Assembly (NCBI GenBank): GCA_965221695.1
Contig: OZ244905.1
Location: 288,001-352,000 of the forward strand
Source: Gammaproteobacteria bacterium
Lineage (GTDB): Bacteria; Pseudomonadota; Gammaproteobacteria; Eutrophobiales; Eutrophobiaceae
Direction of reading: 5' to 3'
DNA length: 64,000 nucleotides
Made by a program: the position numbers and the translations under genes. Below the pieces are notes generated by a model, which was not told the DNA's origin, searched no databases, and saw only the letters and a program-made list of their open reading frames with translations. Positions 10,081 through 61,075 of the stretch are shown here, one piece after another; position 1 is the stretch's first letter, and every line of letters begins with the position of its first letter.

Positions 10081-10231
10081 CATTCTGGCTTGTGCAGAGT
10101 TTCCTATGATACAGGGATGTATCGTCAAAATCGGCGATAGTAAGCCATTGATTATGAGAAGAAAACAAAAATCGAAATTTTATTTTTCGTACTCTGACAA
10201 GTCTTGGATGGACTTGTTCAGAGTTTCTTAA
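10081..10231 (-). mobile_element. MITE-like element, copy A (degenerate at one end)
   Basis: Reverse complement reads AAGAAACTCTGAACAAGTCCATCC...GATACATCCCTGTATC..GGAAACTCTG and is collinear with the copies at 20634 and 48347. Confidence 0.8.
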
Positions 10232-20633: not shown

Positions 20634-20791
20634 TAAAGAAGCTCTGAACAAGTCCATCCTGGACTTGTCAGAGCACGCAAAACAAAAAATCGATTTTTGT
20701 TTTGCTATCAAATTCAATGACTTATCGTCATCGAATTTGGCGATACATCCCTGTATCGCAGGAACCTCTGACTTAATCAGAGTTTTCCTAA
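20634..20791 (+). mobile_element. MITE-like element, copy B (152 bp plus TAA flanks)
   Basis: Ends AGAAGCTCTGAACAAGTC and GACTTAATCAGAGTTTTCC; (C)TAA on both sides; five internal hairpins. Confidence 0.85.
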
Positions 20792-20821
20792 GCAGGGTTC
20801 CTTTAAGTCAGGAGTGAAATA

Positions 20822-45900: not shown

Positions 45901-48294
45901 ATGAGTAACGGTCTTAAAATAATCTGTCTTGGCGGGGGGCCGGCATCGCTTTATTTCTCCCTGCTGATGAAAAAAGCAAATCCCGCTCATAATATTCAAG
46001 TCATTGAACGGGGTCCCTCCGATGCTACCTGGGGTTTCGGCGTGGTGTTTTCCGATGACACCTTACGTGGGTTTATGGAAGCCGACCCGCCTAGTTACAA
46101 ACGCATCGTGGAACAATTCGCCTACTGGGACCGGATAGAGACCCGCATACACGGCGCAAGCGTGGTGAGTGGCGGGCACGGATTCTGCGGATTGTCGCGG
46201 CTTAAGCTGTTGAATGCGTTGCATGATCGTTGTGAGGAACTGGGTGTAGCCCTGAAATTCAACACCGATATTACCGACCTGGCGCAGCTTGAGATCGATA
46301 AACACGATCTGGTCATAGCCGGAGACGGCATCACTTCTATGCTCCGCAGCGCCTATGCGGAGGCATTCGGCGTCAGCATGGACTGGCGGTCCAATCGTTT
46401 CTGCTGGCTGGCGACTACCTTGCCGTTGGATAATTTTACTTTTACTTTTCGGAAAAACGAACATGGCTGGTGGTGGACACACGGCTATCGCTACGAACAA
46501 GGCATGTCTACCTGGATCGTGGAATGCAACCGGCAGACCTGGTTGAACGCAGGAATGGATGCGTTCTCGGAACAAGACACCCGCGCTTATATCGAGGAGG
46601 TGTTCAGGGAAGACCTGCGCGGCCATCCTGTCATCACCAACCGCTCGGTCTGGCGCGAATTCCCTGTTGTGCGCAATGCCAGGCTCTACCACAGGAACAT
46701 CGTGTTGTTGGGTGATGCCGGGCGATCGGCCCATTTTTCTGTCGGTTCCGGCACCAAGCTTGCCATGGAGGACGCGATTACACTGGCCGGCATATTCCGG
46801 GATCAGGGCGATTGCGTCCCGTCCGCGCTAAAGGCATACCAGCAAATCCGTAAACCAGAGGCGGATCGTCTGCAACGCGCTGCGGTGACCAGTTTGCGCT
46901 GGTTTGAGAATGTGGAGCGCTATGCCGGCCAGGATCCATTGCAGTTCACATTCAACATGCTTGCCCGCTCCAAGCGGGTCACCTATGACAACCTGAGACT
47001 GCGTGATCCCTCATTTATTCGCGCCACAGACCAGTGGTTTGCAACCAATACTCAGGCGTTGACCGGTTTCGACGACATCGATACGGAAAACCCTGTTGCG
47101 CCGATGTTTCAACCGTTCAGAATAGGGCGGATGCGAGTGGAAAACCGCGTTCAGCTCTCCGCTATGTGCCAGTATTGCGCGTCAGACGGGGTGCCTGGTG
47201 AATGGCATTTTGTGCATTACGGCTCACGGGGAGTGGGCGGAGTCGGCCTGGTGAATACGGAAATGTTGTGCGTGTCGGCAGACGCTCGAATCACCCATGG
47301 CTGCGCCGGATTATGGAATGCGGAGCAAACAGAGCAATGGCGGCGTATCTGCGTGTTTATCCATCAGCACAGTAGGGCAAAAGTCTGCGCGCAAATCGGT
47401 CATGCCGGCCGCAAAGGCGCGACCTGCATCCCTTGGCAAGGCGGGATCGATCAACCACTGCCGTCTGAGGACTGGGAGATCATGGCGCCGTCGCCGTTGC
47501 CGTACCTGGAGCATAGCCGGGTCCCGCGGGAGATGACCGGCGCGGATATGGAGCGAGTGGAACAAGATTTCGTGAACGCAACGAAAAACGCGATTGCCGC
47601 CGGTTTTGATATGCTGGAGTTGCATATGGCGCACGGTTACCTGCTGTCGTCCTTCATTAGCCCTTGCGCCAACCTGCGCCGGGACGAACATGGCGGGGAC
47701 ATCAATGGCCGGGCTCGTTTCCCGTTGCGAATCTTGCGCGCCGTGCGCCGGATCTGGCCCGTAGAGCGTCCTTTGTCGGCGCGCATCTCAGCTACTGACT
47801 GGACTGGCGACGGGCTCTCCGAACAGGATCTGCTGACTTTCGTCCGATTGTTAAAAGACAACGGCGTCGACCTCATCAATGTCTCCACCGGACAGGTGGT
47901 CAGCTACGAAGAACCTGTCTATGGGCGAATGTACCAGGCTCCGTTTTCTGACCTGATCCGCAACGAGGTAGGGATTGCGACCGTGGTAGCCGGCAATATT
48001 ACCAATGCCGATCAAGTCAATACGCTGATCGCCGCAGGCAGAACCGACCTGGTGGCGCTGGCGCGCCCGCTTATGAACGAACCCCAGTTCGTGCTGAATG
48101 CTGCGGCCCGTTACGGATATCGCGCGCAGCGCTGGCCGGAACAGTACGCCGCGGGCAAATTCGCGGCCGAGTTGATTGCTGAGCGGGAGCGTAGCGAAGA
48201 GATCGAGCTGAAAATCAGCGCAAAACCCCCGAACCCACAGGAAATACTGGCCGTCGCGATCGCCAGGGGTGAAGTGTTTCTGGAGAAACCCTGA
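45901..48294 (+). CDS. Bifunctional 2-aminobenzoyl-CoA monooxygenase/reductase (AbmA) / salicylyl-CoA 5-hydroxylase family
   Basis: N-terminal FAD monooxygenase (GGGPA, WGFGVVFSD, GDA..AHFSVGSGTKLAMED) fused to an OYE barrel (QIGHAGRK, HMAHGYLL). Confidence 0.92.
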   Translation: MSNGLKIICLGGGPASLYFSLLMKKANPAHNIQVIERGPSDATWGFGVVFSDDTLRGFMEADPPSYKRIVEQFAYWDRIETRIHGASVVSGGHGFCGLSRLKLLNALHDRCEELGVALKFNTDITDLAQLEIDKHDLVIAGDGITSMLRSAYAEAFGVSMDWRSNRFCWLATTLPLDNFTFTFRKNEHGWWWTHGYRYEQGMSTWIVECNRQTWLNAGMDAFSEQDTRAYIEEVFREDLRGHPVITNRSVWREFPVVRNARLYHRNIVLLGDAGRSAHFSVGSGTKLAMEDAITLAGIFRDQGDCVPSALKAYQQIRKPEADRLQRAAVTSLRWFENVERYAGQDPLQFTFNMLARSKRVTYDNLRLRDPSFIRATDQWFATNTQALTGFDDIDTENPVAPMFQPFRIGRMRVENRVQLSAMCQYCASDGVPGEWHFVHYGSRGVGGVGLVNTEMLCVSADARITHGCAGLWNAEQTEQWRRICVFIHQHSRAKVCAQIGHAGRKGATCIPWQGGIDQPLPSEDWEIMAPSPLPYLEHSRVPREMTGADMERVEQDFVNATKNAIAAGFDMLELHMAHGYLLSSFISPCANLRRDEHGGDINGRARFPLRILRAVRRIWPVERPLSARISATDWTGDGLSEQDLLTFVRLLKDNGVDLINVSTGQVVSYEEPVYGRMYQAPFSDLIRNEVGIATVVAGNITNADQVNTLIAAGRTDLVALARPLMNEPQFVLNAAARYGYRAQRWPEQYAAGKFAAELIAERERSEEIELKISAKPPNPQEILAVAIARGEVFLEKP

Positions 48295-48346: not shown

Positions 48347-48504
48347 TAAGGGAAACTCTGAACAAGTCCATCCTGGACTTATCAGAGCACGAAAAACAAA
48401 AATGCGATTTTTGTTTTCCTCACAATATCAATGCTTTACAGTCATTGATATTGACGATACATCCTTGTATCGTAGGAACCTCTGACTTAATCAGAGGTTC
48501 CTAA
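48347..48504 (+). mobile_element. MITE-like element, copy C (152 bp plus TAA flanks)
   Basis: GGGAAACTCTGAACAAGTC...GACTTAATCAGAGGTTCC; CTAAG reads at both junctions; collinear with copy B. Confidence 0.88.
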
Positions 48505-48570
48505 GGTTAATCATGGGTTATACTGTTCCGAAAATCTGATGCTGAAGGCGGTCATAGCAGGAGAGAGAAC

Positions 48571-49884
48571 ATGAAACAATACTCAAATGACGAGTTGTCG
48601 GGCCTGGTAAAAGAAGATTCGGTTCATAAAAAAGTCTATACGGACCCTGAAATCTTTGACCTGGAAATGGAGCGCATCTGGAACAAGTCCTGGATATATG
48701 TGGGACATGACAGCCAGGTCAAACAGCCGGGCGATTATTTTGCCACAAGCATCGGCAAGCAACCGGTTGTCATGACCCGACACCGGGATGGCAAGGTGCA
48801 TGTGCTGTTCAACCGTTGCAGTCACAAAGGCGCTCAAGTTGTGGGAGACACTTGCGGAAACCTGCCGCAACTGCGTTGCAGTTACCATGGTTACGTGTTC
48901 GATACCGATGGGACATTGCTCCACATCCCCAGGGAAGAAGGCTATAGCGGGGTTGGATTTGGCAAAGGCAGCGCCGAATCCAACATGCAACAAGCGCCGC
49001 GTGTCGACAGTTATCACGGACTGGTGTTCGCCAGTCTGACAAGCAACGGGCCGGATTTACAAACATGGTTAAGCGGCGCCGCGGCATCCATCGATAACTT
49101 GGTGGAACGCTCTCCTGAAGGGCGCATTGAAATTGCCGGCGGTTGTTTCCGCTACCTGCATGATTCCAACTGGAAGATGTTTGTGGAAAACCTGAACGAC
49201 GCCATGCACCCCATGGTTGTGCACCAGTCTTCCAGCGGCACCGCAAAGCGAGTATTTGATGAACGCTTGAAAGAAGGCGATCCGGTCCCGTTTGAACTGG
49301 AGATGCTGGCGCCGTTTACTAACAACTACGAGTTCTTTGAAAAAATGGGACTCACGGCCTGGGATTACGGGCATAGCGTCACCGGTGGAAAATTCAGCAT
49401 TCACTCAGCCTATTCGCCCATACCCGGTTACATGGACGCTTTGATCGATAAATACGGCGAACAGAAGGCCAAGGAAATCCTCGCGGTAAACCGCCACAAT
49501 ACCGTTGTCTACCCCAGTTTTACCTTGAAAGGCGCCATCACTTCGATCCGTGTCGTCAAGCCGGTGGCGGTAGATAAGACGGTTATCGAGTCATGGGTGT
49601 TCAAGCAGGTGGGCGCTCCTGAGGAACTGTTCCGGCGATCCATCACCTATTGCAACCTGATCAATTCCCATGCCAATCTGGTTGGCCCGGATGACTATGA
49701 AGCCTATCACCGCTTGCAGCATGGCTTGCAGACAGAAGACGGCAATGAATGGGTGAGTCAGCATCGTTATCTAGGCAAGGACGAAGTGGATGAGGATGGC
49801 GCCCGGCACGCGGCGGGCACCTCCGATATGGTCTTTCGCCACCAGTTCCAGACCTGGAAGAACTACATGGTTGGCCTTCAATGA
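48571..49884 (+). CDS. Rieske ring-hydroxylating oxygenase alpha subunit, IadD (indole-3-acetate oxygenase)-like
   Basis: CSHKG...CSYHG; NWKMFVENLNDAMHPMVVH; RSPEG.IEIAGGC, FSIHS.Y and RHNTV segments resemble my recollection of Variovorax IadD (not aligned). Confidence 0.88.
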   Translation: MKQYSNDELSGLVKEDSVHKKVYTDPEIFDLEMERIWNKSWIYVGHDSQVKQPGDYFATSIGKQPVVMTRHRDGKVHVLFNRCSHKGAQVVGDTCGNLPQLRCSYHGYVFDTDGTLLHIPREEGYSGVGFGKGSAESNMQQAPRVDSYHGLVFASLTSNGPDLQTWLSGAAASIDNLVERSPEGRIEIAGGCFRYLHDSNWKMFVENLNDAMHPMVVHQSSSGTAKRVFDERLKEGDPVPFELEMLAPFTNNYEFFEKMGLTAWDYGHSVTGGKFSIHSAYSPIPGYMDALIDKYGEQKAKEILAVNRHNTVVYPSFTLKGAITSIRVVKPVAVDKTVIESWVFKQVGAPEELFRRSITYCNLINSHANLVGPDDYEAYHRLQHGLQTEDGNEWVSQHRYLGKDEVDEDGARHAAGTSDMVFRHQFQTWKNYMVGLQ

Positions 49885-49965
49885 CGCCATTGTCAATGCT
49901 TCGGACAATCAACATAGCCAGAGCTTTTCTGCGCTCTTCTTTTTTTAGAACAGGACTGAATTCTC

Positions 49966-50466
49966 ATGCAGACCCCGCAGCAAACCAACCCGCCTGATCT
50001 CCGATCATTGGAACAATTTCTGTATCACGAAGCGCGCCTGCTGGATGAACAACGCTGGGAGGAATGGAATGCCCTATACCTTGAAGACGCTGAATACTGG
50101 GCGCCGGCGGCGCCGGACCAGGAGGATCCGCACAACCATGTCTCGCTTATCTATGAAACGGGGCTGCTCAGGGCCGTGCGCATCAAACGTTACAGGCACC
50201 CCAATGCTTTTTCCCTGCAACCTCAACCCCGTAGCGCGCACCTGGTAAGCAATGTCATGCTGGACAGCTTTGATGAGAATACCCTGGAGTGCCAGGTCAA
50301 TTCCCGTTTCATCATGTTGCAGTATCGGCGCGAGAAACAGGATGTGTTTGCCGGGACCTACCAGCACAAACTGCGCATTGAGGGGAATGAATTCAGGATC
50401 GCCGCCAAGCGTATCGACTTGCTCAACTGCGACGCGCCGCTGGAAAATATACTCATATATTTCTAA
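49966..50466 (+). CDS. Ring-hydroxylating oxygenase beta subunit (IadE-like)
   Basis: FLYHEARLLD, YWAP and KRIDLLNCDA. Confidence 0.9.
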   Translation: MQTPQQTNPPDLRSLEQFLYHEARLLDEQRWEEWNALYLEDAEYWAPAAPDQEDPHNHVSLIYETGLLRAVRIKRYRHPNAFSLQPQPRSAHLVSNVMLDSFDENTLECQVNSRFIMLQYRREKQDVFAGTYQHKLRIEGNEFRIAAKRIDLLNCDAPLENILIYF

Positions 50467-50766
50467 ATGCCCTCCGCACAAGGGAAATCCACTGATTCCG
50501 CCGCGTACCGGAAATTCAGGCGCATTCACAACAGATTGTCCTGGATACTGATCACCGCGCTGGTCGGCCTGGCGCTGGCATTTGATCTGTTCAACGTCTA
50601 CGCAAAAAAGCTCATGGGCGCTCCGCTGGTAGAACACAGCGTGATTTCCATCGGCATGTTCATTGCGCTGTTGATCATCCTGATTATTCTTGCCGCCGCA
50701 GTGTATTACACACTCAGGATCAATGCCGCTTACCTGGAGCTGCGCGAGTCCCAGGACGATGACTGA
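50467..50766 (+). CDS. DUF485/YjcH-like membrane protein
   Basis: Two TM helices; overlaps the actP-like gene, the canonical pairing. Confidence 0.8.
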   Translation: MPSAQGKSTDSAAYRKFRRIHNRLSWILITALVGLALAFDLFNVYAKKLMGAPLVEHSVISIGMFIALLIILIILAAAVYYTLRINAAYLELRESQDDD

Positions 50767-52318
50767 CCTGAATTATCCTGCGATTGCGTCGTTTGTACTG
50801 TTTATTATCGCCACATTGTTTATCACCGTGTATGCCGCGCGCCGCACACGTTCCAGAAAAGACTTCTACGTGGCAGGCAACGCCATCGGGGGCATACAGA
50901 ACGGCATCGCCATTTCCGGGGATTATATGTCCGCCGCTTCTTTCCTGGGCCTGGTGGGGCTTTTTTTTCTTGGCGGCTATGACACCATCTATTTTATCGT
51001 AAACCTGATTCTGAGTTGGGCGGTGGTGCTGTTTCTAATCGCCGAAAAGCTGCGCAACCTGGGCTCCTATACCTTTGCGGACGCGGTGTCGGTCAGGCTG
51101 GCGACACGACCGATACGGATACTCGCAGCTACCGTCACCCTGGCTGTAGCCATCCCGTACATGCTGGCGCAGATGGTCGCCGCCGGCGCTTTGTTCGAAT
51201 CTCTGTTCGGCCTCAGTTTCAGCCAAGGTGTGCTGGCAGTTGGCGTTCTGATGACTATTTATATCACTTTCGGCGGTATGATCGCGACCACCTGGGTGCA
51301 GATCATCAAGGCCGCGCTGCTGGTTGGCGGCGGCACCGTTCTTACAGTGGGGGTGCTTGCCAGTTTCAACTTTGACGTCAACAGATTGGCCGAACTGGCC
51401 GTGGCGGCGCACCCGCAAGGCATAGCCATCATGCAGCCGGGACTACTCTACCCGGACCTTATTTCCGTAGTTTCCCTGAGCCTCGCGTTTATCGGCGGCA
51501 CTGCGGGATTGCCCCATGTCCTGATGCGTTTTTTTACCGTGCCGGACGGTGTACAAGCCCGGCGTTCGGCTGCCTGGGCCATGGGAATCATCAGCTATTT
51601 CCAATTGCTGGTACTGTTCATCGGCCTTGGAGCGATAGTATTGTTGACGAACAATCCTGAATTCAGCGCCGGCGGTCTGCAGTTGCGTGGCGGCAGCAAT
51701 ATGGCGGCGATACACCTTTCGCAAATCATTGGCGGCAATATCTTCATGGGGTTTATCTGCGCGGTCGCATTTGCCACCATTCTCGCAGTAGTGTCAGGTC
51801 TGATGCTGTCCGCCGCCGCCACTATTTCCCACGACCTTTATGCCGGCGTTATCCGCAAAGGAGAATGCGACGAAGCTGAAGAGTTACGCGTGTCTCGATT
51901 GACAGTAGTCGTGTTGAGCGTTATCGGTATCTTGCTTGCCCTGATGTTCGAGGGCCAGAATGTGGCCGTGCTGGCCACCTTGCCTCTGGTAATCGCGGCC
52001 AGCGCCAACTTTCCCATTCTGTTCCTGTTCATGTACTGGAAAGGTTTCACCACCCGTGGCGCGCTGTTCGGCGGTTACACCGGATTGGCTCTGGCTGTCA
52101 GTCTGATCATTCTTGGCCCGACCGTCTGGGTTAACGTACTGGGTTACGAACAAGCGTTGTTTCCCTACACTTATCCGACCTTATTTTCCATGGGCGCTTG
52201 TTTCCTGTTTGCCTGGTTTTTCTCGATCACAGACAACAGCCCGCGCGCCGCCGCGGAAGCCGCCGCGTTTGCCGAACAGCAGCGCCGCTCACATTTGGGC
52301 GAACTGTCGTGCGGCTGA
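50759..52318 (+). CDS. Sodium:solute symporter, ActP-like
   Basis: NGIAISGDYMSAASFLG, GGMIATTWVQIIK, GTAGLPHVLMRFFTVP and AVAFATILAVVSG. Confidence 0.92.
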   Translation: MTDLNYPAIASFVLFIIATLFITVYAARRTRSRKDFYVAGNAIGGIQNGIAISGDYMSAASFLGLVGLFFLGGYDTIYFIVNLILSWAVVLFLIAEKLRNLGSYTFADAVSVRLATRPIRILAATVTLAVAIPYMLAQMVAAGALFESLFGLSFSQGVLAVGVLMTIYITFGGMIATTWVQIIKAALLVGGGTVLTVGVLASFNFDVNRLAELAVAAHPQGIAIMQPGLLYPDLISVVSLSLAFIGGTAGLPHVLMRFFTVPDGVQARRSAAWAMGIISYFQLLVLFIGLGAIVLLTNNPEFSAGGLQLRGGSNMAAIHLSQIIGGNIFMGFICAVAFATILAVVSGLMLSAAATISHDLYAGVIRKGECDEAEELRVSRLTVVVLSVIGILLALMFEGQNVAVLATLPLVIAASANFPILFLFMYWKGFTTRGALFGGYTGLALAVSLIILGPTVWVNVLGYEQALFPYTYPTLFSMGACFLFAWFFSITDNSPRAAAEAAAFAEQQRRSHLGELSCG

Positions 52319-52330
52319 GTGAAGAATACT

Positions 52331-53968
52331 ATGAGCACGGTATATAAAGAGTTTCTGAAGACAGAGACCAGGGTTTCCGCCCAGGCTTTTCTGCACATCC
52401 CGCGTCAGGCTACCAGGGAATATCACGATCGGTCTGTTGATTATACCTATGCAGAGGCGCTGCAGGCAGTCAATGCCTTAAGCGAGCAATACGCCGAAGC
52501 CGGCTACGGCCACGGCATGCGTGTGGCGCTCATGCTGGACAACCGGGCAGAGTTTTTTCTGCATTTTCTTGCTCTGAACAAACTCGGTATCAGTATTGTG
52601 CCGGTGAATTCCAGTTTTCTGCCTCGGGAAATCGCTTATGTCATCACTCATAGCGACGCCTGCCTGGTTTTGTGTCTGCCCTGTTATCGGGACAAGACGC
52701 GGGCGGCCCTTGCCGCTGAACACACGACCATTCCAATTGCCGATACCGATTCATTGTCCCGGTTGCCTGTCTGCAGCGAGACAAAGAGGTCAGGCGCACC
52801 GCGCAAGAACACGGAGGTGGCAGTGCTGTACACCTCCGGAACCACCGGCACGCCCAAAGGTTGCATGTTGAACAACGAATACTTCACCTGTATGGGAGAA
52901 TGGTATGCCAATATCGATGGTTACTGCCGGCTGGCATACGCAGAGGAGAGGATGCTGACACCGCTGCCACTGGTACACATGAATGCGCTGTGTTCCATGA
53001 TGGCGATGATTATGAGCGGTGGCTGCATAATTCAATTGGATCGTTTTCATGCGTCAAGCTGGTGGGAAACAGTGCGTGAATCCAGGGCGACTTGCCTGCA
53101 TTATCTCGGTGTCATACCGGCAATTCTGTTGAACCAGCCTGAAACAGCGCATGACAACATGGGGCGGCAGATCAAGTTCGGGTTCGGCGCCGGTGTCGAC
53201 CCGAAACATCTGCAACGTTTCGAACAACGCTTCGGTTTTCCCCTGGTGGAAGGTTGGGCCATGACCGAAACCGGCACGTATGTCTGTATCACGGCCAACA
53301 AGGAGCCCCGCCATATCGGTACCCGCTGCATCGGCAAGGCGCCCGATGTGATTGAATATCGCCTGGTGGATGAAGAGGGCAACAATGTGGCCGAAGGCGA
53401 ACCGGGAGAATTATTGATCCGCGCCAGTGGAGACAACCCGCGCAAAGGCTTCTTCTCCGGTTATTACAAGAACCCGGAAGAAACAGCCAAGGTCTGGGAG
53501 GGGGGCTATTTTCATACCGGCGACGTGGTGCGAATCAGCGCGGATGGCTCCTTTCATTTCGTGGATCGGCGCAAGAATATCATCCGGCGCAGCGGTGAAA
53601 ACATCGCCGCAGTGGAAGTTGAGAACGTGCTGTTCCAACACCCTTTGGTCGCCAACTGCGCGGTAGCGCCTGTTTACGATGAGACCCGCGGCGAAGAAGT
53701 AGGCGTCTGCGTCATCCTCGACACATCCTCAGAGGAATATACCGGTTCCGAAACTGAACTGGCCGAAACCTTGTTTGCATTTTGCGCAGAGCGTTTAATC
53801 TACTACAAAGTCCCGGCCTGGTACCTGTTTGTCGCTGAACTGCCTATGACCGCGTCACAGAAACTTCAGCGCGGCGAAATCAAGGCGCTTGTCAACAAAC
53901 TGGTGGAAGAGGGCCGTTGTATCGACTTGAGAGAGCGTAAACGCAGGAAAAAAAATGTTGCCGTATGA
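52331..53968 (+). CDS. Acyl-CoA ligase (CaiC-like AMP-binding enzyme)
   Basis: YTSGTTGTPKG, WAMTE, FHTGD and RRSGENI. Confidence 0.92.
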   Translation: MSTVYKEFLKTETRVSAQAFLHIPRQATREYHDRSVDYTYAEALQAVNALSEQYAEAGYGHGMRVALMLDNRAEFFLHFLALNKLGISIVPVNSSFLPREIAYVITHSDACLVLCLPCYRDKTRAALAAEHTTIPIADTDSLSRLPVCSETKRSGAPRKNTEVAVLYTSGTTGTPKGCMLNNEYFTCMGEWYANIDGYCRLAYAEERMLTPLPLVHMNALCSMMAMIMSGGCIIQLDRFHASSWWETVRESRATCLHYLGVIPAILLNQPETAHDNMGRQIKFGFGAGVDPKHLQRFEQRFGFPLVEGWAMTETGTYVCITANKEPRHIGTRCIGKAPDVIEYRLVDEEGNNVAEGEPGELLIRASGDNPRKGFFSGYYKNPEETAKVWEGGYFHTGDVVRISADGSFHFVDRRKNIIRRSGENIAAVEVENVLFQHPLVANCAVAPVYDETRGEEVGVCVILDTSSEEYTGSETELAETLFAFCAERLIYYKVPAWYLFVAELPMTASQKLQRGEIKALVNKLVEEGRCIDLRERKRRKKNVAV

Positions 53969-55121
53969 AGATATTGCTCTGGTCGCCGCAACCAGTCTGC
54001 GTTATGTGAAACGTAGCGAACGCAGCGCGGCCTGGTTTATCGGCATGACGTTTGCTCGTATGCTGGAACGCGCCGGATTGCGAAAACACGATGTGGACGG
54101 CCTGGCGATTGCCAGTTTTACCCTGGCGCCAGACAGTGTGGCGAGCATGACTGAATACCTGGATATATCACCGCGTTGGCTGGAACAGATCCCGATGGGC
54201 GGCGCCAGCGGACCAGTCGCCACCAAGCGCGCGGCGCGGGCGGTACAGTCCGGCGATGCCGAGGTCGTGGCGTGCATCGGAGGCGATACCGCATCGGCGG
54301 ACACATTCGTCAATCTGGTGGAGCGCTTCAGCCGGTTTTCGACAGACGCGGTATATCCCTATGGCGCCGGCGGGCCAAATACGGTGTTTGCCATGATTAC
54401 CCGCCATTACATGGAACAGTATGGCGCGCAGCGCGAAGACTTTGGTCGTATCTGTATCGCCCAACGAGAAAATGCCCTGGCTGCGGGTCGCGCAATGTTC
54501 AATACACCGTTATCCATGAAGGATTATTTGGGCGCGCGCCCCATCTGCGATCCCTTGCGTTTGTATGATTGCGTGATGCCCGTTGCCGGCGCTGACGGTT
54601 TTCTGGTAATGCCGGTTGCCCGGGCGGAGGCCCTGGACCTGCCCTATGCCAGGCTGCTGGCCGCGGGAGAGCGGCACAACGCCTGGTCTGACGACGATGT
54701 GCATTTTCGCGCCGGTTGGCGACTCTACCGGGATGAATTGTACGATCAGGCGGGGGTCGATCCAGACAACATTGACTTTTTGCAGACCTACGATGATTAC
54801 CCCGTAATAGCCATGATTCAGATGGAGGACCTCGGATTTTGCGACAAAGGCGGGGCGCCGGATTTTGTGCGCACGCGCGCGCTGACCTGGAACGGTGGAG
54901 GGCTACCGCATAATACCTGCGGCGGGCAATTATCCGCGGGACAGGCCGGCGCTGCCGGCGGTTTTCTTGGCACGGTCGAGGCCATCCGACAACTGACCAC
55001 AACCGGTTTGCCTAACCAGATTCCCGGCGCAAAAACCGGCATGGTAAGTGGCTATGGCATGGTCAACTATGATCGCTGTCTGTGCACCAGCGCCGCGCTT
55101 CTGGGCCGGGGACGGCAATGA
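53955..55121 (+). CDS. Thiolase-fold protein (SCP2/Ltp2-like) lacking the N-terminal catalytic Cys
   Basis: MGGASG in place of CxSG; DPLRLYDC, QTYDDY, NTCGGQLS and EAIRQL. Confidence 0.85.
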   Translation: MLPYEDIALVAATSLRYVKRSERSAAWFIGMTFARMLERAGLRKHDVDGLAIASFTLAPDSVASMTEYLDISPRWLEQIPMGGASGPVATKRAARAVQSGDAEVVACIGGDTASADTFVNLVERFSRFSTDAVYPYGAGGPNTVFAMITRHYMEQYGAQREDFGRICIAQRENALAAGRAMFNTPLSMKDYLGARPICDPLRLYDCVMPVAGADGFLVMPVARAEALDLPYARLLAAGERHNAWSDDDVHFRAGWRLYRDELYDQAGVDPDNIDFLQTYDDYPVIAMIQMEDLGFCDKGGAPDFVRTRALTWNGGGLPHNTCGGQLSAGQAGAAGGFLGTVEAIRQLTTTGLPNQIPGAKTGMVSGYGMVNYDRCLCTSAALLGRGRQ

Positions 55122-55558
55122 AAGACCAATCAGGCCCTCCTGCCGCGCGCTCCCATCTTTGGCAGCGCGTCAACCAGACTGCCGCTGAGGGAACGCTCAG
55201 ACTGCAGGTCTGCAAACACTGCGGCAAGACGCAGTATCCGCCGCAGGAATTCTGCAGTGTTTGTCTGAGCGATGACTTATCGTGGGAACAGGTCAACCCT
55301 TTAGGCAAAACGCTTTCATGGACTACAAGCCATGCCAGCAACAACCGGTTTTTCAAGGATCGATTGCCTCTTCACATTGGAATGATTAAACTGGATTGCG
55401 GTCCTGTTATGATTGCTTATCTGGCAGCGTCCTGTTTACGCGCCGGCAGCAGGACACAAATCTCGGTTTATCCTGATAAATCCGGCCAGGCCGTCTTCCT
55501 TGCCGCGCCGCCGGGCTCAGATCCTGCGCCTGAATTCAGCAACATACTGATTGAATAA
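55118..55558 (+). CDS. DUF35 zinc-ribbon/OB-fold protein
   Basis: CKHCG..QYPP..FCSVC zinc ribbon plus OB fold; ATGA overlap with the thiolase gene. Confidence 0.88.
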   Translation: MKDQSGPPAARSHLWQRVNQTAAEGTLRLQVCKHCGKTQYPPQEFCSVCLSDDLSWEQVNPLGKTLSWTTSHASNNRFFKDRLPLHIGMIKLDCGPVMIAYLAASCLRAGSRTQISVYPDKSGQAVFLAAPPGSDPAPEFSNILIE

Positions 55559-55632
55559 TCGCTAACCTGCAAACACTGGCCGTTTCGGATACCCGTTTGC
55601 TCAGGAGCCGACGCTGCCACAGGAGATGAAAT

Positions 55633-56364
55633 ATGATAAAAAAAAATCAAGTAGTGGTCGTTACCGGCGGCAACCGGGGTATCGGCGCGGATATTACCCG
55701 GCGCTTTCTCAACAGCGGCTACCTCGTCGTCAATATATCCAGGCAGCCCCCTGAGTTTGCGCATGAACGCCTGATCAATTATACCGCTGACCTGGCGAAT
55801 CAACAGGCAACACGGGAAGTCGGCATGGAGATAGCGAAACAGCATGAGGTTACGAACTTCATTCACAATGCCGGCGTCATCCGTCCCGATTTGCTTGAAA
55901 ATGTCAGTCTTGAAGACCTGGATTACTTAACCCAACTGCACTTGGGCAGCGCGATCACTTTGGCGCAACAGTTTGTGCCGGCAATGCGCGCGGCGCAGTT
56001 CGGCAGGATCATCCTCATCTCATCCCGCGGCGTGCTGGGCTTGGTGACTCGTACCAATTATGCGGCTACCAAGGCCGGACAGATTGGCATCACGCGCACC
56101 TGGGCATTGGAATTGGCAAAAGACGGGATTACGGTGAATTGTGTGGCGCCCGGGCCGATTGTGACGGATATGTTCCATGAGCTGGTTCCGGACGACAGCG
56201 AACAAAAGACACAGATCGCGGAGAGCGTTCCGGTCAAACGCTTGGGTACTCCTCAAGACATCGGGCGCGTGGTTGAATTTTTGTGCGCGCCAGACAGCGG
56301 CTTCATTACCGGACAGACCTGGTATATCTGTGGCGGCGCCAGCCTGGGCTCGCTGGCTTTGTGA
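55633..56364 (+). CDS. Short-chain dehydrogenase/reductase
   Basis: TGGNRGIG, NAG, YAATK and TRTWALELA. Confidence 0.9.
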   Translation: MIKKNQVVVVTGGNRGIGADITRRFLNSGYLVVNISRQPPEFAHERLINYTADLANQQATREVGMEIAKQHEVTNFIHNAGVIRPDLLENVSLEDLDYLTQLHLGSAITLAQQFVPAMRAAQFGRIILISSRGVLGLVTRTNYAATKAGQIGITRTWALELAKDGITVNCVAPGPIVTDMFHELVPDDSEQKTQIAESVPVKRLGTPQDIGRVVEFLCAPDSGFITGQTWYICGGASLGSLAL

Positions 56365-56445: not shown

Positions 56446-57690
56446 TCAAATTATGACCAATATCAGATAAAACGCCGCGAATAATGTCAGCGCCCAGACG
56501 CAGACCACACTGTAGCGAGTCAGTCCTGGCGCTGGCTGCATCTTTGCCGGCACATCTTCGGAATGCATGGCGCGGTGAATTAGCCAGGCCAGCGCTGGCG
56601 CAGTCAGAAACGCCAGGGTAGTGGCGATATCGATCAGGGTTTTGAATGATTGAAGGAAAAACATGATGATGGACAGGGAAATCAGGATCATTCCCAGGAT
56701 AGTAGCCAGATAAATCCTGAAGCGCAGCTTCTCCGGCAATGCTTCGTTCCTGAAACAATTAACCAGAGCGCATACAGTGCGTGGGTAGCCATCGTGTATG
56801 ACCAGTACGGTGGATAGCATGACTGCGAATGCGGCAATGGCAATAATTGGCCTGGTCCATTGTCCCAAGAGCGAAGAATAAATGTTGACGAGTTGCGCTG
56901 AAAACTCGGCCGGAGAAGATGAAAACTGCAGGTCGGAACCATGCATCACCGCAGCCCCCAGCATCAGAAAGCAGAGCGCGGTCACGATAGTCGAGCAATA
57001 CCCGACGTGATAATCCAGTTTTACCTCTGCGGCGGACAGCTTGTTCTGTTTGTTCTTTTCCAGGACCCACAACGATTGCCAGATGCAGGTTTCGAATGGC
57101 GCCGGCATAAAGCCGATCAATGCCGCCAGAAACAAAATCGATGACCTGTTGAATACGTCAGGTGTGAGAATATCGGCCTGCCCCCAGTCGATCAAGGGCA
57201 TGGAGAGTGACGTTGCCGCCAGGGTAGAGACAAACAGGATCAGGAGCAGGATTTTTGTAATACTGTCCAACCAGTGGTACTGGCCGGCTATCAGGCAGAT
57301 GCCGGAAAAAGCACAGATACAAGCAGCCACCACGGCGATAGGCAGGTTCAGGTTAAAACTGATCACTGCCAGACCGCTCGTCACCAACACCACTGCTGCA
57401 AACCCGGTAAACATCACACAAAATATCACCAGCGCGCACAGCCATACGGCCCAGCTTCCCTGACGGCGAAAACCGGTCAGCAAGTGTTGCCCGGTGGCGT
57501 AAGCGTATTCATGTCCGAAACGGAAGATCGGGTATTTCATAGCAAAAGCCAGCAGGATGAACAACAACAAGTCCATCCCGTAAAGGGCGCCGGCGCGGGT
57601 TGCCTGCACCAGGTGGGATACCCCGATAGCCGCGGCAGCCATCAACAGTCCGGGACCAAGAACTGTGAACAGCCTGTATTTCCATTTCAT
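56446..57690 (-). CDS. NRAMP-like/APC-fold membrane transporter
   Basis: LGPGLLMAAAAIGVSHLVQATRAGA.YG; about 11 TM helices; start set at MKWK because the upstream in-frame extension runs through a MITE remnant. Confidence 0.8.
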   Translation of the reverse strand: MKWKYRLFTVLGPGLLMAAAAIGVSHLVQATRAGALYGMDLLLFILLAFAMKYPIFRFGHEYAYATGQHLLTGFRRQGSWAVWLCALVIFCVMFTGFAAVVLVTSGLAVISFNLNLPIAVVAACICAFSGICLIAGQYHWLDSITKILLLILFVSTLAATSLSMPLIDWGQADILTPDVFNRSSILFLAALIGFMPAPFETCIWQSLWVLEKNKQNKLSAAEVKLDYHVGYCSTIVTALCFLMLGAAVMHGSDLQFSSSPAEFSAQLVNIYSSLLGQWTRPIIAIAAFAVMLSTVLVIHDGYPRTVCALVNCFRNEALPEKLRFRIYLATILGMILISLSIIMFFLQSFKTLIDIATTLAFLTAPALAWLIHRAMHSEDVPAKMQPAPGLTRYSVVCVWALTLFAAFYLILVII

Positions 57691-57755
57691 CAGAGCATGA
57701 TAACCACGGTTTGCGCATTTGACCACCATAACAACGCCTCCCCGCCTGGATACGC

Positions 57756-57793
57756 GCTCTGACAAGTCCAGAATGGATTTATCAGATCTTTCC
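57756..57793 (-). repeat. Left-end fragment of the MITE family
   Basis: Reverse complement GGAAAGATCTGATAAATCCATTCTGGACTTGTCAGAGC matches the first hairpin of copies B and C. Confidence 0.75.
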
Positions 57794-57920
57794 AAAATTT
57801 ACACGGCAAAAAACGTATGCCTCTATCTTGACCTGCTTCTCAAGGTTTGGGATAAAGCTCTTGAAACAAAACCGGATTTGATGGATGATGGCAAGATGGT
57901 AAAAAACACTTAGGTTTCCC

Positions 57921-59165
57921 ATGGATGCTATTCCGATTCCCTGGAGTAAGATACGTATTTATTTTTTGCTTCTCCTCTTTCTGACAGGTTGTGACGCGCA
58001 ACAACCGGCGGATGAATCTGCGCCGGTTGCTATCTCATCCGGCGAGAAGGATACGTATGTGGACACCAGCAAGGGACCTCTGTCCAAGGACATTTTTGGT
58101 AAGGTTGCCAGTTTGCCGGAAACGCCGCATCCCCACTGGGTCTGGATTTATGATATCGCCGCCAGTTCAATGCCGGACGGGCGCGCCTATCTGTATGATG
58201 GAAACAGCGCACGGTTGCTGGGCATGCTCAATACCGGATATTCCTTCAATGCGTTGAATATTCCCAGCCATTACCGGGAAGTCTATTCGGCTGAAACATA
58301 TTATGCCAGAACAACCCGCGGGGCACGCGCCGATGTGGTCAGTATTTACGACCCGTTCACGCTATTACCGGTAACTGAAATAGCGATCCCTGCAAAACGC
58401 GTGTCCACCCTGCCCAGGCTGGCAGATTCTGCATTGACCGACGATGATCGTTTTATGGCTGTTTTCAACCTGACGCCGGCGGCGTCATTGAGCATTGTGG
58501 ATCTGACGCAGCGCCGATTTGCCGGAGAAGTTATGATCCCCGGCTGCGCAATGGCTTATGGCGCCGGCGACAGACGTTTCTTCGCACTGTGCAGCGACGG
58601 GACGCTGCTGCTGATCGACCTGACAGAAGAGGGCGGGCAGGCCACATCGCAAAGAAGCGAGCCTTTTTTCAACGCGCTTGAGGATCCGATCCTGGAGACC
58701 GGCGCCCGTCAAGGCAACGTTTGGTATTTCATGTCGGTTCTGGGAAAAGTCCATCCGGTGGAAATCGCTGCCGGCGGACCGGATTTTCCCGATACCTGGT
58801 GGTACCTGGATGAGCAGGATCGAGACAACAACTGGCGCATAGGAGGAATACAGGCCGTCGCCCTGCATAAGGCGACTGAACAGCTCTACCTGTTGATGCA
58901 TCAGGGTGATTTCTATTCCTACGAAGCGCCCGGACCGGAAATCTGGGTTTATGATCTGGCCACCCGCGCGCGCCTGAAAAAAATCAGGACCAGACATCCC
59001 AGCATATCGATCGCAGTGAGTCAGGATGACAGTCCGCTGCTATACACGATAACCGAAGATTTGAAGAGATTGGAAATCTATGACGCAATTAACGGTGAAT
59101 ACCTGCGCTCAGCCGGAGAACTGGGTATCACGCCGTTTTTAATTGAGCCGTTGCCGTTGCTATAG
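57921..59165 (+). CDS. TTQ amine dehydrogenase large (beta-propeller) subunit, MauB/AauB-like, with lipobox
   Basis: YSAETYYAR.TRG.R.DVV, FNLTPA.S, PGC, CSDG, WRIGG.Q, LLMH, EIWVYD and VSQD..PLLY; N-terminal LTGC lipobox. Confidence 0.88.
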   Translation: MDAIPIPWSKIRIYFLLLLFLTGCDAQQPADESAPVAISSGEKDTYVDTSKGPLSKDIFGKVASLPETPHPHWVWIYDIAASSMPDGRAYLYDGNSARLLGMLNTGYSFNALNIPSHYREVYSAETYYARTTRGARADVVSIYDPFTLLPVTEIAIPAKRVSTLPRLADSALTDDDRFMAVFNLTPAASLSIVDLTQRRFAGEVMIPGCAMAYGAGDRRFFALCSDGTLLLIDLTEEGGQATSQRSEPFFNALEDPILETGARQGNVWYFMSVLGKVHPVEIAAGGPDFPDTWWYLDEQDRDNNWRIGGIQAVALHKATEQLYLLMHQGDFYSYEAPGPEIWVYDLATRARLKKIRTRHPSISIAVSQDDSPLLYTITEDLKRLEIYDAINGEYLRSAGELGITPFLIEPLPLL

Positions 59166-59221: not shown

Positions 59222-59740
59222 ATGAGGTTTTTTGATCGCTGGTTCCAAGATAGGAGCCGCTCCCTGGCGCTCCGCACATCGCGCCGGAGCTTTTTGCAGA
59301 AAGCCGGTATCCTGTTGGTTGGCGCCGGCGCTGTGCCGTTGCTGCCCGTCGCCAGGGCGAATACGGCGCCGGAGGACAGCTCGATTGCCGGACCTGAAGG
59401 CGATCCGGAAAAATGCGAGTACTGGCGCAACTGCGGTATGGATGGTTTTCTTTGCTCTTGTTGCGGCGGCAGCCACATCAGTTGCCCGCCTGGCACAGAG
59501 ATGGCGCCCATGACCTGGGTAGGCACCTGTAAAAACCCTGCGGACGGGCGCGACTATATTATTGCCTACAATGACTGCTGCGGCAAAAGCACCTGCAATC
59601 GCTGCATGTGCAATCGCAACGAGGGCGACCTGCCTAATTATTTCCCATCCAAGAGCAATGATATCAACTGGTGTATGGGCTCCAGTAACAATGTCTATCA
59701 CTGTACGACCACTATATTGCTGGGATTGGCGGTGAGCTGA
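59222..59740 (+). CDS. TTQ amine dehydrogenase small subunit, AauA/MauA-like
   Basis: Tat motif SRRSFL; C.YWR.C..DGFLCSCCGG, W in TWVGTC, Y.DCCG and W in DINWC (both TTQ tryptophans present). Confidence 0.93.
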   Translation: MRFFDRWFQDRSRSLALRTSRRSFLQKAGILLVGAGAVPLLPVARANTAPEDSSIAGPEGDPEKCEYWRNCGMDGFLCSCCGGSHISCPPGTEMAPMTWVGTCKNPADGRDYIIAYNDCCGKSTCNRCMCNRNEGDLPNYFPSKSNDINWCMGSSNNVYHCTTTILLGLAVS

Positions 59741-59755: not shown

Positions 59756-61075
59756 ATGGGCATATCTATCTGCAATGATGAGATAGCTTCACTGGTTCAG
59801 CCGGACCGGGTGCATAAACGGGTTTACACGGACCCGGCCATATTCGACCTGGAGATGGAACGCATATGGGGCAATGCCTGGATCTATATCGGCCACGAGA
59901 GCCAGGTGAAACGCCCTGGAGACTTCTTTACCACTACGCTGGGCAAACAATCGGTTATCGTCACCCGGCATAGCGATAACCGGATCTATGTGCTGTATAA
60001 CCGCTGCGCTCATAAGGGCGCTCAGTTGATCGCGCAACCCTGCGGTCACGCGCGGCAACTACGTTGCGCGTATCATGGCTATGTATTCGATACGGCCGGC
60101 GTCCTCACGCATATCCCCCGGGAGGAAGGATACAAAGATACGGACTTCGCGCGTGCTACGACTCTGACCGGCATCCGCCAAGTAGCCAGGGTCGAGACGT
60201 ATCGCGGCTTTATTTTTGCCAACCAGGCGCCGCATGGAGCCGATTTGGCAAGCTGGTTGGGACTGGCCACCACTTCCCTTGATAATGCCGTCGACAGGTC
60301 GCCTACTGGCGAGATCGAGATGACCGGCGGTGTATTGCGTTATCTGCATGACGCCAACTGGAAGATCCTGTTGGAAAACGTATCTGACAATATGCATCCT
60401 GCGGTCACTCACCAGTCTGCGTGGCAACCGGCAAAACGTCTCGCCAGTGAATATCCGGAAGATCAGAAGCCTTTGCCGCTTGCCATGCTGGAACCTTTCG
60501 GTTCAAGTTACGAGTTTTTCGACAAGATAGCAATGACCACTTGCGGCAACGGCCACACCTGGTCCGGCGGCAATGCAACAATCCATATCGGTTATCCGCG
60601 TGAATCGAAATACGTGCGCGACCTGGTGGCAGTCCACGGAGAGGAGCAGACCAAGCGCATACTTTCCATGCAACGGCAGAATACCATCATCTATCCCAGT
60701 ATCGCGTTCAAGAGCGCATTACAGACGATCCGGGTTTATCGCCCCATAGCTGTCGACAAGACAATACAGGAGACCTGGACGTACAAGCTGGGCGGGGTAT
60801 CAGACGATGTGTTGCATACTTCGACGCTTTACAACCAGTTGATCTTCTCGCCGTTTTCCATAGCCGGCCATGATGATTATGAAGCTTACCACCGCATCCA
60901 GCACGGACTGCAGGCAGACGCTTCCGAGTGGGTGAGTCAGCACCGCCATTATGGCCGCGACCAGCGCAATGATGACGGGACCGTACAGGCACGCGGCACC
61001 AGCGATATCGTATTCCGACACGAGTTTGAAGCCTGGAAGAACTACATGACATTATCGCATGTGGAAGCCTCCTGA
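59756..61075 (+). CDS. Second IadD-like Rieske oxygenase alpha subunit
   Basis: CAHKG...CAYHG; ENVSDNMHPAVTH; clear paralog of 48571-49884. Confidence 0.9.
   Translation: MGISICNDEIASLVQPDRVHKRVYTDPAIFDLEMERIWGNAWIYIGHESQVKRPGDFFTTTLGKQSVIVTRHSDNRIYVLYNRCAHKGAQLIAQPCGHARQLRCAYHGYVFDTAGVLTHIPREEGYKDTDFARATTLTGIRQVARVETYRGFIFANQAPHGADLASWLGLATTSLDNAVDRSPTGEIEMTGGVLRYLHDANWKILLENVSDNMHPAVTHQSAWQPAKRLASEYPEDQKPLPLAMLEPFGSSYEFFDKIAMTTCGNGHTWSGGNATIHIGYPRESKYVRDLVAVHGEEQTKRILSMQRQNTIIYPSIAFKSALQTIRVYRPIAVDKTIQETWTYKLGGVSDDVLHTSTLYNQLIFSPFSIAGHDDYEAYHRIQHGLQADASEWVSQHRHYGRDQRNDDGTVQARGTSDIVFRHEFEAWKNYMTLSHVEAS

Follow-up and report, generated by a model that had tools for sequence, protein, structure and literature searches.

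Introduction

Between bacteria and plants or algae, indole-3-acetic acid (IAA) acts as a signal, and the iad route of IAA degradation lets Variovorax reset plant auxin levels. To our knowledge, the entry of IAA into degrading bacteria is understood only for the IadK2 system, which is of the ATP-binding cassette (ABC) type. The closest described locus, iadCDEFGHIJK2 of Variovorax paradoxus CL14 (Conway 2022; Ma 2023; Jiang 2025–26, preprint), shares the gene order D-E-F-G-H-J, at 40–56% identity, with an operon at positions 48571–56364 of the DNA studied here, a stretch of 64,000 nucleotides (nt) of a gammaproteobacterial genome of the family Eutrophobiaceae (contig OZ244905.1, positions 288,001 to 352,000), hereafter the window. 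A DUF485/ActP-type transporter pair lies between the counterparts of iadE and iadF, and a gene resembling an anthraniloyl-CoA monooxygenase/reductase lies upstream. In comparison with Variovorax, the operon is without IadC, IadI and the short-chain dehydrogenase/reductase (SDR) half of IadH, the genome is without IadA/B and K2/K3, and there is no MarR gene nearby. We consider it probable that the operon is of the iad type, with IAA or an indole-acetate very close to it as substrate, and that the inserted DUF485/ActP pair imports this substrate.

The inserted pair is the same two-gene cassette as yjcH–actP of Escherichia coli, which specifies an acetate/glycolate:cation symporter, and it has the same overlapping frames and SSF fold. 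Unlike the E. coli cassette, however, it does not lie by acs, its symporter scores below the ActP cut-offs and belongs to a separate clade, and it is embedded in an aromatic catabolic operon. By its gene context it can be likened to PaaL/PhaJ of Pseudomonas putida, an aryl-acetate permease that is encoded with catabolic genes and is presumably a member of the ActP family. PaaL is a proven phenylacetate permease and is needed for growth on phenylacetate (PMC3224230). For the IadG-like protein of the operon the closest solved enzymes are the steroid side-chain retro-aldolases CtSal–ShyDUF35 (9MYR) and TcLtp2–ChsH2DUF35 (6OK1), whose neighbouring DUF35, base tyrosine and GGAS stretch are kept here; both are thiolase-fold retro-aldolases with a DUF35 domain and split β-hydroxyacyl-CoA esters (PMC12329534). 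The upstream gene encodes a protein of 797 aa that shares the two-domain build of the Azoarcus enzyme 2-aminobenzoyl-CoA monooxygenase/reductase, a likeness that is drawn via the NCBIfam model NF006101 only.

Results

An iad-like operon with an embedded transporter pair

A preliminary description, made from the letters of the sequence without database searches, had named eight genes with particular domains. The list of open reading frames (ORFs), Pfam and NCBIfam agree with it: all eight are present with those domains, tightly packed on one strand.

48571..49884, plus strand: alpha subunit, Rieske and Ring_hydroxyl_A domains (Pfam), IadD-like
49966..50466, plus strand: beta subunit, Ring_hydroxyl_B (Pfam), IadE-like
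50467..50766, plus strand: small DUF485 (YjcH-like) membrane protein (Pfam PF04341, 40.3 bits; cut-off 28)
50759..52318, plus strand: SSF/ActP-family symporter, 519 aa (PF00474, 311 bits)
52319..53968, plus strand: AMP-binding acyl-CoA ligase (Pfam), IadF-like
53955..55121, plus strand: Thiolase_C_1 protein of the SCP2-type thiolase fold (Pfam), IadG-like
55082..55558, plus strand: stand-alone DUF35 protein, zf-ChsH2 and OB_ChsH2_C, that is, zinc ribbon and OB fold (Pfam); start codon uncertain
55633..56364, plus strand: SDR (Pfam), IadJ-like

Gaps of 81 nt and 74 nt separate alpha from beta and DUF35 from SDR, respectively. Elsewhere the genes abut or overlap: the ATG of DUF485 abuts the stop codon of beta, DUF485 and ActP overlap by 8 nt (the symporter ORF is listed as 50690–52318, its likely start being the ATG at 50759), the GTG of the ligase abuts the stop codon of ActP, ligase and thiolase overlap by 14 nt, and thiolase and DUF35 overlap by at most 40 nt, the start of DUF35 being uncertain. 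Such overlaps, and stop codons that directly meet the next start, point to translational coupling around DUF485/ActP.

The oxygenase keeps the IAA pocket of IadD

Among solved structures, the best matches of the alpha subunit are IadD chains (7yls_B/8h2t, 460 bits; 9o71_A, 457.8 bits), with 9vdb_A, a ring-hydroxylating dioxygenase alpha subunit (151 bits), and biphenyl dioxygenases (about 149 bits) coming next. The beta subunit finds 7yls_A first (123.8 bits; next match, 57 bits). The preliminary description had held that low identity to IadDE would speak against its reading; the alpha subunit is 46–47% identical to Variovorax IadD and the beta subunit 40% identical to Variovorax IadE, and IadDE are the best solved relatives. 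The Variovorax IadD used for this comparison is near-identical to the PDB chains (>1000 bits).

The Rieske ligands of IadD are Cys85, His87, Cys106 and His109, in agreement with the numbering of 7yls_B, and its IAA pocket is formed by N210, L211, H216, H221, F251, H311, K322, R329 and Y362 (PMC10374108). A scripted alignment found all nine pocket residues identical in the operon alpha; in all, the 14 positions checked (the four Rieske ligands, H216/H221/D377 and seven further pocket residues) are identical to IadD. The genome searched, a single contig of 3.54 Mb, holds 23 matches to the operon Rieske alpha, and three alpha paralogues differ from IadD at one or two pocket positions each (L211V with H311Q; K322R; F251N with K322H). 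Besides that of the operon, two IadD-like alpha/beta pairs occur, at genome positions 1249341–1250654 and 422845–424652, neither with its own IadF or IadG; one of them directly adjoins rpoA–rplQ and has the K322R pocket, and the other is of the F251N/K322H type that is common to loci of Azoarcus indigens and Achromobacter kerstersii.

In a tree of 85 alpha subunits (quick IQ-TREE search), the operon alpha fell inside the IadD-like family with 97% support in the Shimodaira–Hasegawa-like approximate likelihood ratio test (SH-aLRT). Its own clade of 34 rows includes sequences from Sphingomonadales and Parvularculaceae, among them that of Sphingopyxis Root154, a tested IAA degrader (PMC11630574).

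Database names would point elsewhere, to a general aromatic-acid pathway of the phenylpropionate/benzoate dioxygenase type that is unrelated to indoles: for the oxygenase, NCBIfam offers no models but those of benzoate, anthranilate and phenylpropionate dioxygenases. Their matches, however, all lie far below cut-off, at 170–202 bits against 672–830, whereas IadD matches at 460 bits, and each of IadF, G, H and J has its own counterpart among the accessory genes. We regard such a pathway as highly improbable.

Accessory genes match IadF, IadG, IadH and IadJ

The iad locus of Variovorax sp. ZT5P49 served as reference, and its proteins were searched against the genome by tblastn (E≤1e-5 for IadK). 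Its genes run in the order A/B (resembling indolepyruvate ferredoxin oxidoreductase), the PDR-type reductase IadC, IadD, IadE, the ligase IadF, the thiolase-fold IadG, IadH (a DUF35–SDR fusion), the cyclase IadI, the SDR IadJ and the binding proteins K2/K3, and this content agrees with the gene table of PMC12852158. The first matches in the genome (amino acid identity) were as follows.

IadD: operon alpha, 46%; next match, 43%
IadE: a tie between operon beta, 40%, and the beta of another paralogue, 38%; next match, 28%
IadF: operon ligase, 45%; next match, 30%
IadG: operon thiolase-fold gene, 55%; next match, 28%
IadH, residues 34–158 (N-terminal, DUF35 half): operon DUF35 gene, 41%
IadJ: operon SDR, 52%; next match, 34%

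When the operon proteins were searched against Variovorax, IadG (55–56%) and IadJ (52–53%; next match, 43%) proved to be reciprocal best hits. IadD and IadF came second, by 12–25 bits, to a second iad-like locus of the same Variovorax; for the ligase, the identities are 46% to IadF and 50% to the second locus. The reciprocity that the preliminary description had looked for thus holds for G and J, fails for D and F in favour of Variovorax's other iad-like locus, and is blurred by a tie for E. That other locus (strain ZT5P49, contig C39) is arranged differently, in the order alpha, beta, SDR and ligase, with a thiolase gene nearby; three of the related loci considered below (L072, L090 and L095) represent it.

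The description of the operon as iad-like is borne out by IadD and IadE as best solved relatives, by the conserved pocket and by IadF, G, H (DUF35) and J each finding an operon gene first in the genome. On sequence grounds it is well supported that the operon represents a reduced iad-like form, and it likely functions in IAA catabolism.

Spread of the module and its variable parts

Related loci were sampled as the best 80 of at least 602 stretches, with 10-kb flanks; the DNA patterns that define them do not fit IadD proper. In this sample 74 loci centre on an alpha of the operon type and six on the type of a second IadD-like alpha (alpha2). Beta, ligase, thiolase, DUF35 and SDR occur together in 39 of the 74 alpha-type loci, and 62 have one or more of the four accessory genes, several of the others being short contigs. 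Since the same order recurs in relatives, the gene order is not a product of chance. At E≤1e-180, an orthologue of alpha is present in 33 of 121 genomes of the family.

The preliminary description took the locus for a variant outside the known rhizosphere genera. An iad-like module is indeed present here, but such loci have been catalogued already: auxin-degradation loci are reported in 221 genera (PMC9613470) and iad-like operons in 2 of 304 marine metagenome-assembled genomes (PMC11630574). Genes that the operon lacks are also missing from many sampled loci. IadC-like genes occur in 12 of the 80 (absent from 68), IadK2/K3-like genes in 10–11, IadI-like genes in 29 and IadA/B-like genes in 29–30. 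The preliminary description had a symporter in place of ABC uptake, and tblastn at E≤1e-5 found no IadK-type binding protein in the genome; the lack of ABC, IadC and MarR components, however, is common and not special to this locus. No regulator gene lies near the operon within the window, and the four MarR-family matches in the genome are all more than 270 kb distant.

The IadA/B-like genes, near 29–30 of the 80 loci (L016, L020, L027, L035, L038 and others), are found there at 38–80% identity. Such a 2-oxoacid oxidoreductase could convert isatinate directly to anthraniloyl-CoA, a route that would fit the frequent neighbouring genes of the anthraniloyl-CoA monooxygenase/reductase type.

The transporter belongs to a clade that travels with iad genes

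The best NCBIfam matches of the symporter are ActP models, all below cut-off (TIGR02711, 626 against 1099 bits; NF006903, 693 against 750 bits; NF009135, 652 against 850 bits). Its identity to E. coli ActP is 54.5%. No acs gene adjoins it in the window. Its partner is the only DUF485 protein in the genome found with this query.

In a tree of 36 ActP-family proteins, the symporter falls in a 30-row clade that is supported at 100% (SH-aLRT) and whose stem is 1.23 substitutions per site long. Of these rows, 23 lie inside iad operons, five lie beside an IadF-like ligase and two stand among unrelated genes. The generic copies of the family, which come from other genera, form a group with E. coli ActP; they are 68–71% identical to it, and all 10 that were fetched have yjcH on their upstream side. 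Among the family genomes searched, the genus is without an E. coli-type copy. The preliminary description had treated the gene as an ActP paralogue repurposed for an aryl-acetate; it is a member of a separate, family-specific clade, in which 28 of 30 members adjoin iad-type genes. ActP-like genes (48–50% identity) are found near the iad-like loci of two unrelated lineages as well (L027 and L062).

Judged by position and flanking genes, 17 of the genus's 21 genomes show the order alpha–beta–(DUF485)–ActP–ligase, as do four genomes of a second genus and one of a third, and the transporter pair is an accessory to the operon. In one of the 17 (G117, contig C2, 3013250–3014793) the embedded symporter matches in two overlapping pieces, which may reflect a frameshift or a decaying gene. 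Three relatives carry toxin–antitoxin-type genes (MNT/HepT pairs, ParD, DUF5615/PIN-like) and a Band-7 protein gene at the junction of symporter and ligase, which seems to be an insertion hot spot.

L010, 13600–18650: junction insertion
L011, 13830–15360: junction insertion
L014, 13670–16320: junction insertion

These insertions bear on an alternative, namely that DUF485/ActP is an ordinary permease for acetate or short monocarboxylates, inserted by chance, with IAA entering by diffusion or through another carrier. The same junction has taken up unrelated toxin–antitoxin genes, yjcH–actP is a standard unit, and the symporter still finds ActP as its best family model (693 bits) at 54.5% identity to the E. 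coli protein. Moreover, the operon does without the transporter in four of the 21 genomes of the genus and, according to a statement in the Variovorax preprint, Variovorax degrades IAA even without its dedicated binding protein IadK2. Against this, the symporter falls below all ActP cut-offs, and a long branch with full support separates it from the E. coli-type copies, which other genera of the family keep with yjcH. Moreover, 28 of the 30 members of its clade lie beside iad-type genes, and 23 positions are fixed differently from the generic clade. We judge chance insertion of such a permease to be quite improbable.

Among the differently fixed positions are residues 79, 246, 282 and 410 (numbering of the 519-aa symporter), where aromatic side chains have been lost; the paa-side clade (below) is without them as well, and that such clade-specific residues bear on the cargo is only a hint from the sequences. 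Alignment to the vSGLT and NIS structures was weak (30–35 bits), and the residues of the Na2 site could not be placed.

The genome's only other ActP paralogue, 53% identical to the symporter, adjoins paaABCDE and paaX. Its orthologues in the genus lie next to the same 733-aa gene in eight of eight cases, with paaA within the fetched flank in six of the eight. That both ActP-type genes of the genus sit with aryl-acetate pathways is good contextual support for aryl-acetate uptake and no proof of it. Given this context, the DUF485/ActP pair probably imports IAA or a close derivative. The paa region (genome 862000–880000) contains the ActP paralogue, paaABCDE, paaX and a ligase, with the conserved 733-aa protein, which has a 4Fe–4S dicluster motif, encoded between paaA and the permease. 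On the other side of the permease lie genes for a CN-hydrolase and a flavin amine oxidase, and an amide route to aryl-acetate is possible there.

A closer rival keeps the operon as iad-type and changes only its substrate and cargo, from IAA to an oxidised or related indole-acetate (2-oxindole-3-acetate or dioxindole-3-acetate) or to another aryl-acetate. The transporter gene lies directly 5' of the ligase gene, and clade-mates in five genomes of another genus adjoin only an IadF-like ligase (48–53% identity), the enzyme whose likely substrate is, according to the Variovorax preprint, dioxindole-3-acetate and not IAA. The three further IadD-like alphas with slightly altered pockets likewise point to a range of related substrates. 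However, the operon alpha keeps every residue of the IadD pocket for IAA, which should then be accepted, and the oxygenase of the same operon would be redundant if the importer brought in a downstream intermediate. This variant seems to us rather unlikely, and we continue to favour uptake of IAA itself or a very close indole-acetate.

The IadG-like protein resembles steroid retro-aldolases

The best PDB matches of the IadG-like protein are CtSal (9myr_A, 145.6 bits) and TcLtp2 (6ok1_A, 130.3 bits), both modest. The HDCF motif of SCP2-type thiolases is not present in it; at that place, residues 279–282 read YDDY, a motif that all 47 relatives scored and Variovorax IadG share without change. The equivalent motif is YDCY in CtSal, YDHF in Ltp2 and HDCF in SCP2 thiolases, the Tyr being the catalytic base and the Cys of the CtSal motif being essential (PMC12329534). 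The IadG-like protein thus keeps the catalytic-base Tyr of a YD-x-[YF] motif, and the DUF35 gene overlaps the 3' end of its gene. Unlike CtSal (Cys) and Ltp2 (His), it has Asp as the third motif residue, and its substrate would be an indole-derived thioester and not a steroid. The general acid is not kept, Asp standing at the position of CtSal Cys304 and Gln at that of TcLtp2 Tyr344; the Gln is shared with CtSal.

Dioxindole-3-acetyl-CoA carries a tertiary β-hydroxyl group, which cannot be oxidised to a ketone; for this reason we would regard a retro-aldol split to isatin and acetyl-CoA as the natural step chemically. Such a split would fit the published iad route, which runs through isatin (PMC9613470). 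In the published scheme IadG is termed a ketothiolase (Variovorax preprint), and a word search of the main texts of two iad papers found no 'aldol'. Judging by motif and partner, the IadG-like protein and DUF35 probably form a retro-aldolase of the Sal/Ltp2 type.

Surrounding genes and DNA signals

On either side of the operon the window carries the following features.

45901..48294, plus strand: fusion of an FAD monooxygenase and an old yellow enzyme (OYE)-type reductase, 797 aa (Pfam FAD_binding_3 and Oxidored_FMN)
48351–48502, 10095–10227 and 20638–20792: copies of an interspersed repeat of about 152 nt
48512..48524, plus strand: conserved block CATGGGTTATA with a -10-like TATACT, 47–59 nt 5' of the alpha ATG
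56338..56357, plus strand: terminator-like hairpin at the 3' end of the SDR gene (consensus scan)
56446..57795, minus strand: Nramp-family transporter, convergent with the operon (Pfam, 43.5 bits; NF037982, 62.9 bits against a cut-off of 50)
57921–59165 (heavy chain) and 59222–59740 (light chain), plus strand: amine dehydrogenase of the tryptophan tryptophylquinone (TTQ) type (Pfam Me-amine-dh_H and Me-amine-dh_L)
59756–61075, plus strand: second IadD-like alpha, without its own beta gene, 52% identical to the operon alpha (L211V, H311Q)
61059–62579, plus strand: OYE-family flavoprotein, 506 aa; a homologue (at least 55% identity) lies beside 8 of the 74 loci

The 797-aa fusion scores 1031.7 bits against NF006101 (cut-off 1078), covering model positions 1–763 of 768, and resembles 2-aminobenzoyl-CoA (anthraniloyl-CoA) monooxygenase/reductase and salicylyl-CoA 5-hydroxylase. 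Enzymes of this family have ortho-substituted benzoyl-CoA esters as substrates, anthraniloyl-CoA among them (PMC3534580). A homologue of at least 40% identity lies beside 16 of the 74 alpha-type loci.

Downstream, the Nramp gene adjoins the operon in six further loci (L009, L012, L014, L017, L151 and L152). The extra ligase gene that relatives carry between SDR and Nramp was considered as an anthranilate-CoA ligase and rejected: it matches generic models only, and its counterpart here is 39% identical at best. The light chain of the TTQ enzyme is closest to aromatic amine dehydrogenase (157.6 bits, against 131–152 for methylamine dehydrogenases) and the heavy chain does not discriminate; the enzyme may possibly be an aromatic amine dehydrogenase, through which tryptamine-type amines could reach the pathway. 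In all, four heavy/light TTQ pairs are present in the genome. This downstream island is kept in the genus (whole in L151), and a TTQ light chain gene lies beside 3 of the 74 iad-like loci.

The minus strand between 36904 and 44109 encodes a carboxyltransferase, the beta subunit of a Na+-translocating decarboxylase, an acyl-CoA dehydrogenase, an SDR, an enoyl-CoA hydratase and a second acyl-CoA dehydrogenase. The first acyl-CoA dehydrogenase is nearest to the model of non-decarboxylating glutaryl-CoA dehydrogenase (429.7 bits against a cut-off of 470), and by its gene content the cluster would be of the glutaconyl-CoA-decarboxylase type, in an oxygenase-rich genome. The Gcd-like Na+ decarboxylase lies 4.5–7.5 kb upstream of the operon on the opposite strand, beyond rplM–rpsI; that its gradient drives the symporter, as the preliminary description proposed, is speculation.

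In an alignment of the upstream regions of the window and six relatives, the CATGGGTTATA block is the sole invariant run of columns, which makes it a candidate promoter element. The hairpin is weak evidence for a terminator, because the scan gave 19 sites across the region, where shuffled sequences put the expectation at 14.2. Four perfect inverted repeats 5' of alpha were considered as operators. They are nested palindromes of the repeat of about 152 nt, of which the genome holds 88 copies of at least 130 nt (median identity 94%), and they are absent from the same spacer in six relatives; for both reasons the operator reading was rejected. The copy at 48351–48502 sits between the upstream flavoprotein gene and the promoter region of the operon.

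Discussion

The genes suggest the following route. The DUF485/ActP pair would take up the substrate, as its gene context suggests, and the IadDE-like oxygenase, to judge from homology and pocket, would oxygenate the pyrrole ring of IAA with electrons from a reductase encoded elsewhere. The IadJ-like SDR, in the role given to IadJ by the Variovorax preprint, would then produce dioxindole-3-acetate, from which the IadF-like ligase is predicted by homology to make the CoA thioester. We infer that the IadG-like protein and DUF35 would then carry out a retro-aldol cleavage of this tertiary β-hydroxyacyl-CoA, giving acetyl-CoA and isatin. Isatin would be converted through isatinate to anthranilate, the product of iad loci (Variovorax preprint; PMC9613470), by enzymes outside the operon, and anthranilate may enter a CoA-thioester route through the upstream monooxygenase/reductase.

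Several observations weigh against an operon for IAA with its own importer. The identity to IadD is only 46–47%, and the operon alpha belongs not to the validated clade of Variovorax IadD and Achromobacter but to a sister clade beside it. In Root154, the only tested organism of its own clade, the iad-like genes, which are fragmented, showed no significant induction by IAA (PMC11630574). IadC, IadI and the SDR half of IadH are absent from the operon, and IadA/B and IadK2/K3 found no match in the genome. IadC has only homologues of 26–28% identity elsewhere in the genome, one of which is PaaE, and the sole IadI homologue (33%; genome 2,024,578–2,025,354) is some 1.7 Mb away. As a result, no gene is matched to the steps from isatin to anthranilate, to the reductase or to an anthranilate-CoA ligase. 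The side-chain step is subject to a similar reservation, since Asp in place of CtSal's essential Cys leaves the aldolase chemistry not assured and would require a different acid. ActP is still the family that the transporter matches best, seven members of its clade lie outside any iad operon, and in four of the 21 genomes of the genus (two inspected directly) the operon is found without it. Nevertheless, we hold the combination of an iad-type operon for IAA or a close indole-acetate and its importation by DUF485/ActP to be the more probable explanation.

A wider scheme can be drawn, though we are rather doubtful of it. A family-wide branch of ActP/DUF485 proteins may have turned into importers of auxin-type aryl-acetates, one paralogue serving iad and the other paa. 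Together with the downstream island it could support a path from an aromatic amine (tryptamine) to IAA, onwards to isatin and acetyl-CoA via the YDDY retro-aldolase, and finally to anthranilate or anthraniloyl-CoA.

In conclusion, the likeness of IadG and IadH (DUF35) to steroid retro-aldolases offers a chemically sensible way in which a tertiary alcohol could lose its acetate side chain. If this is true, the 'ketothiolase' step of the published iad pathway would be corrected to a retro-aldolase of IadG and DUF35 with a YDDY active site. If the proposed cargo is confirmed, the symporter would be the first ion-coupled bacterial importer of IAA. The operon presents a compact version of iad, free of ABC and MarR components and equipped with a candidate ion-coupled importer, that is easy to test and to move to other hosts. 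The presence of the alpha subunit in all 21 genomes of the genus makes it a core trait there, and suggests steady auxin turnover in the habitat of these bacteria.

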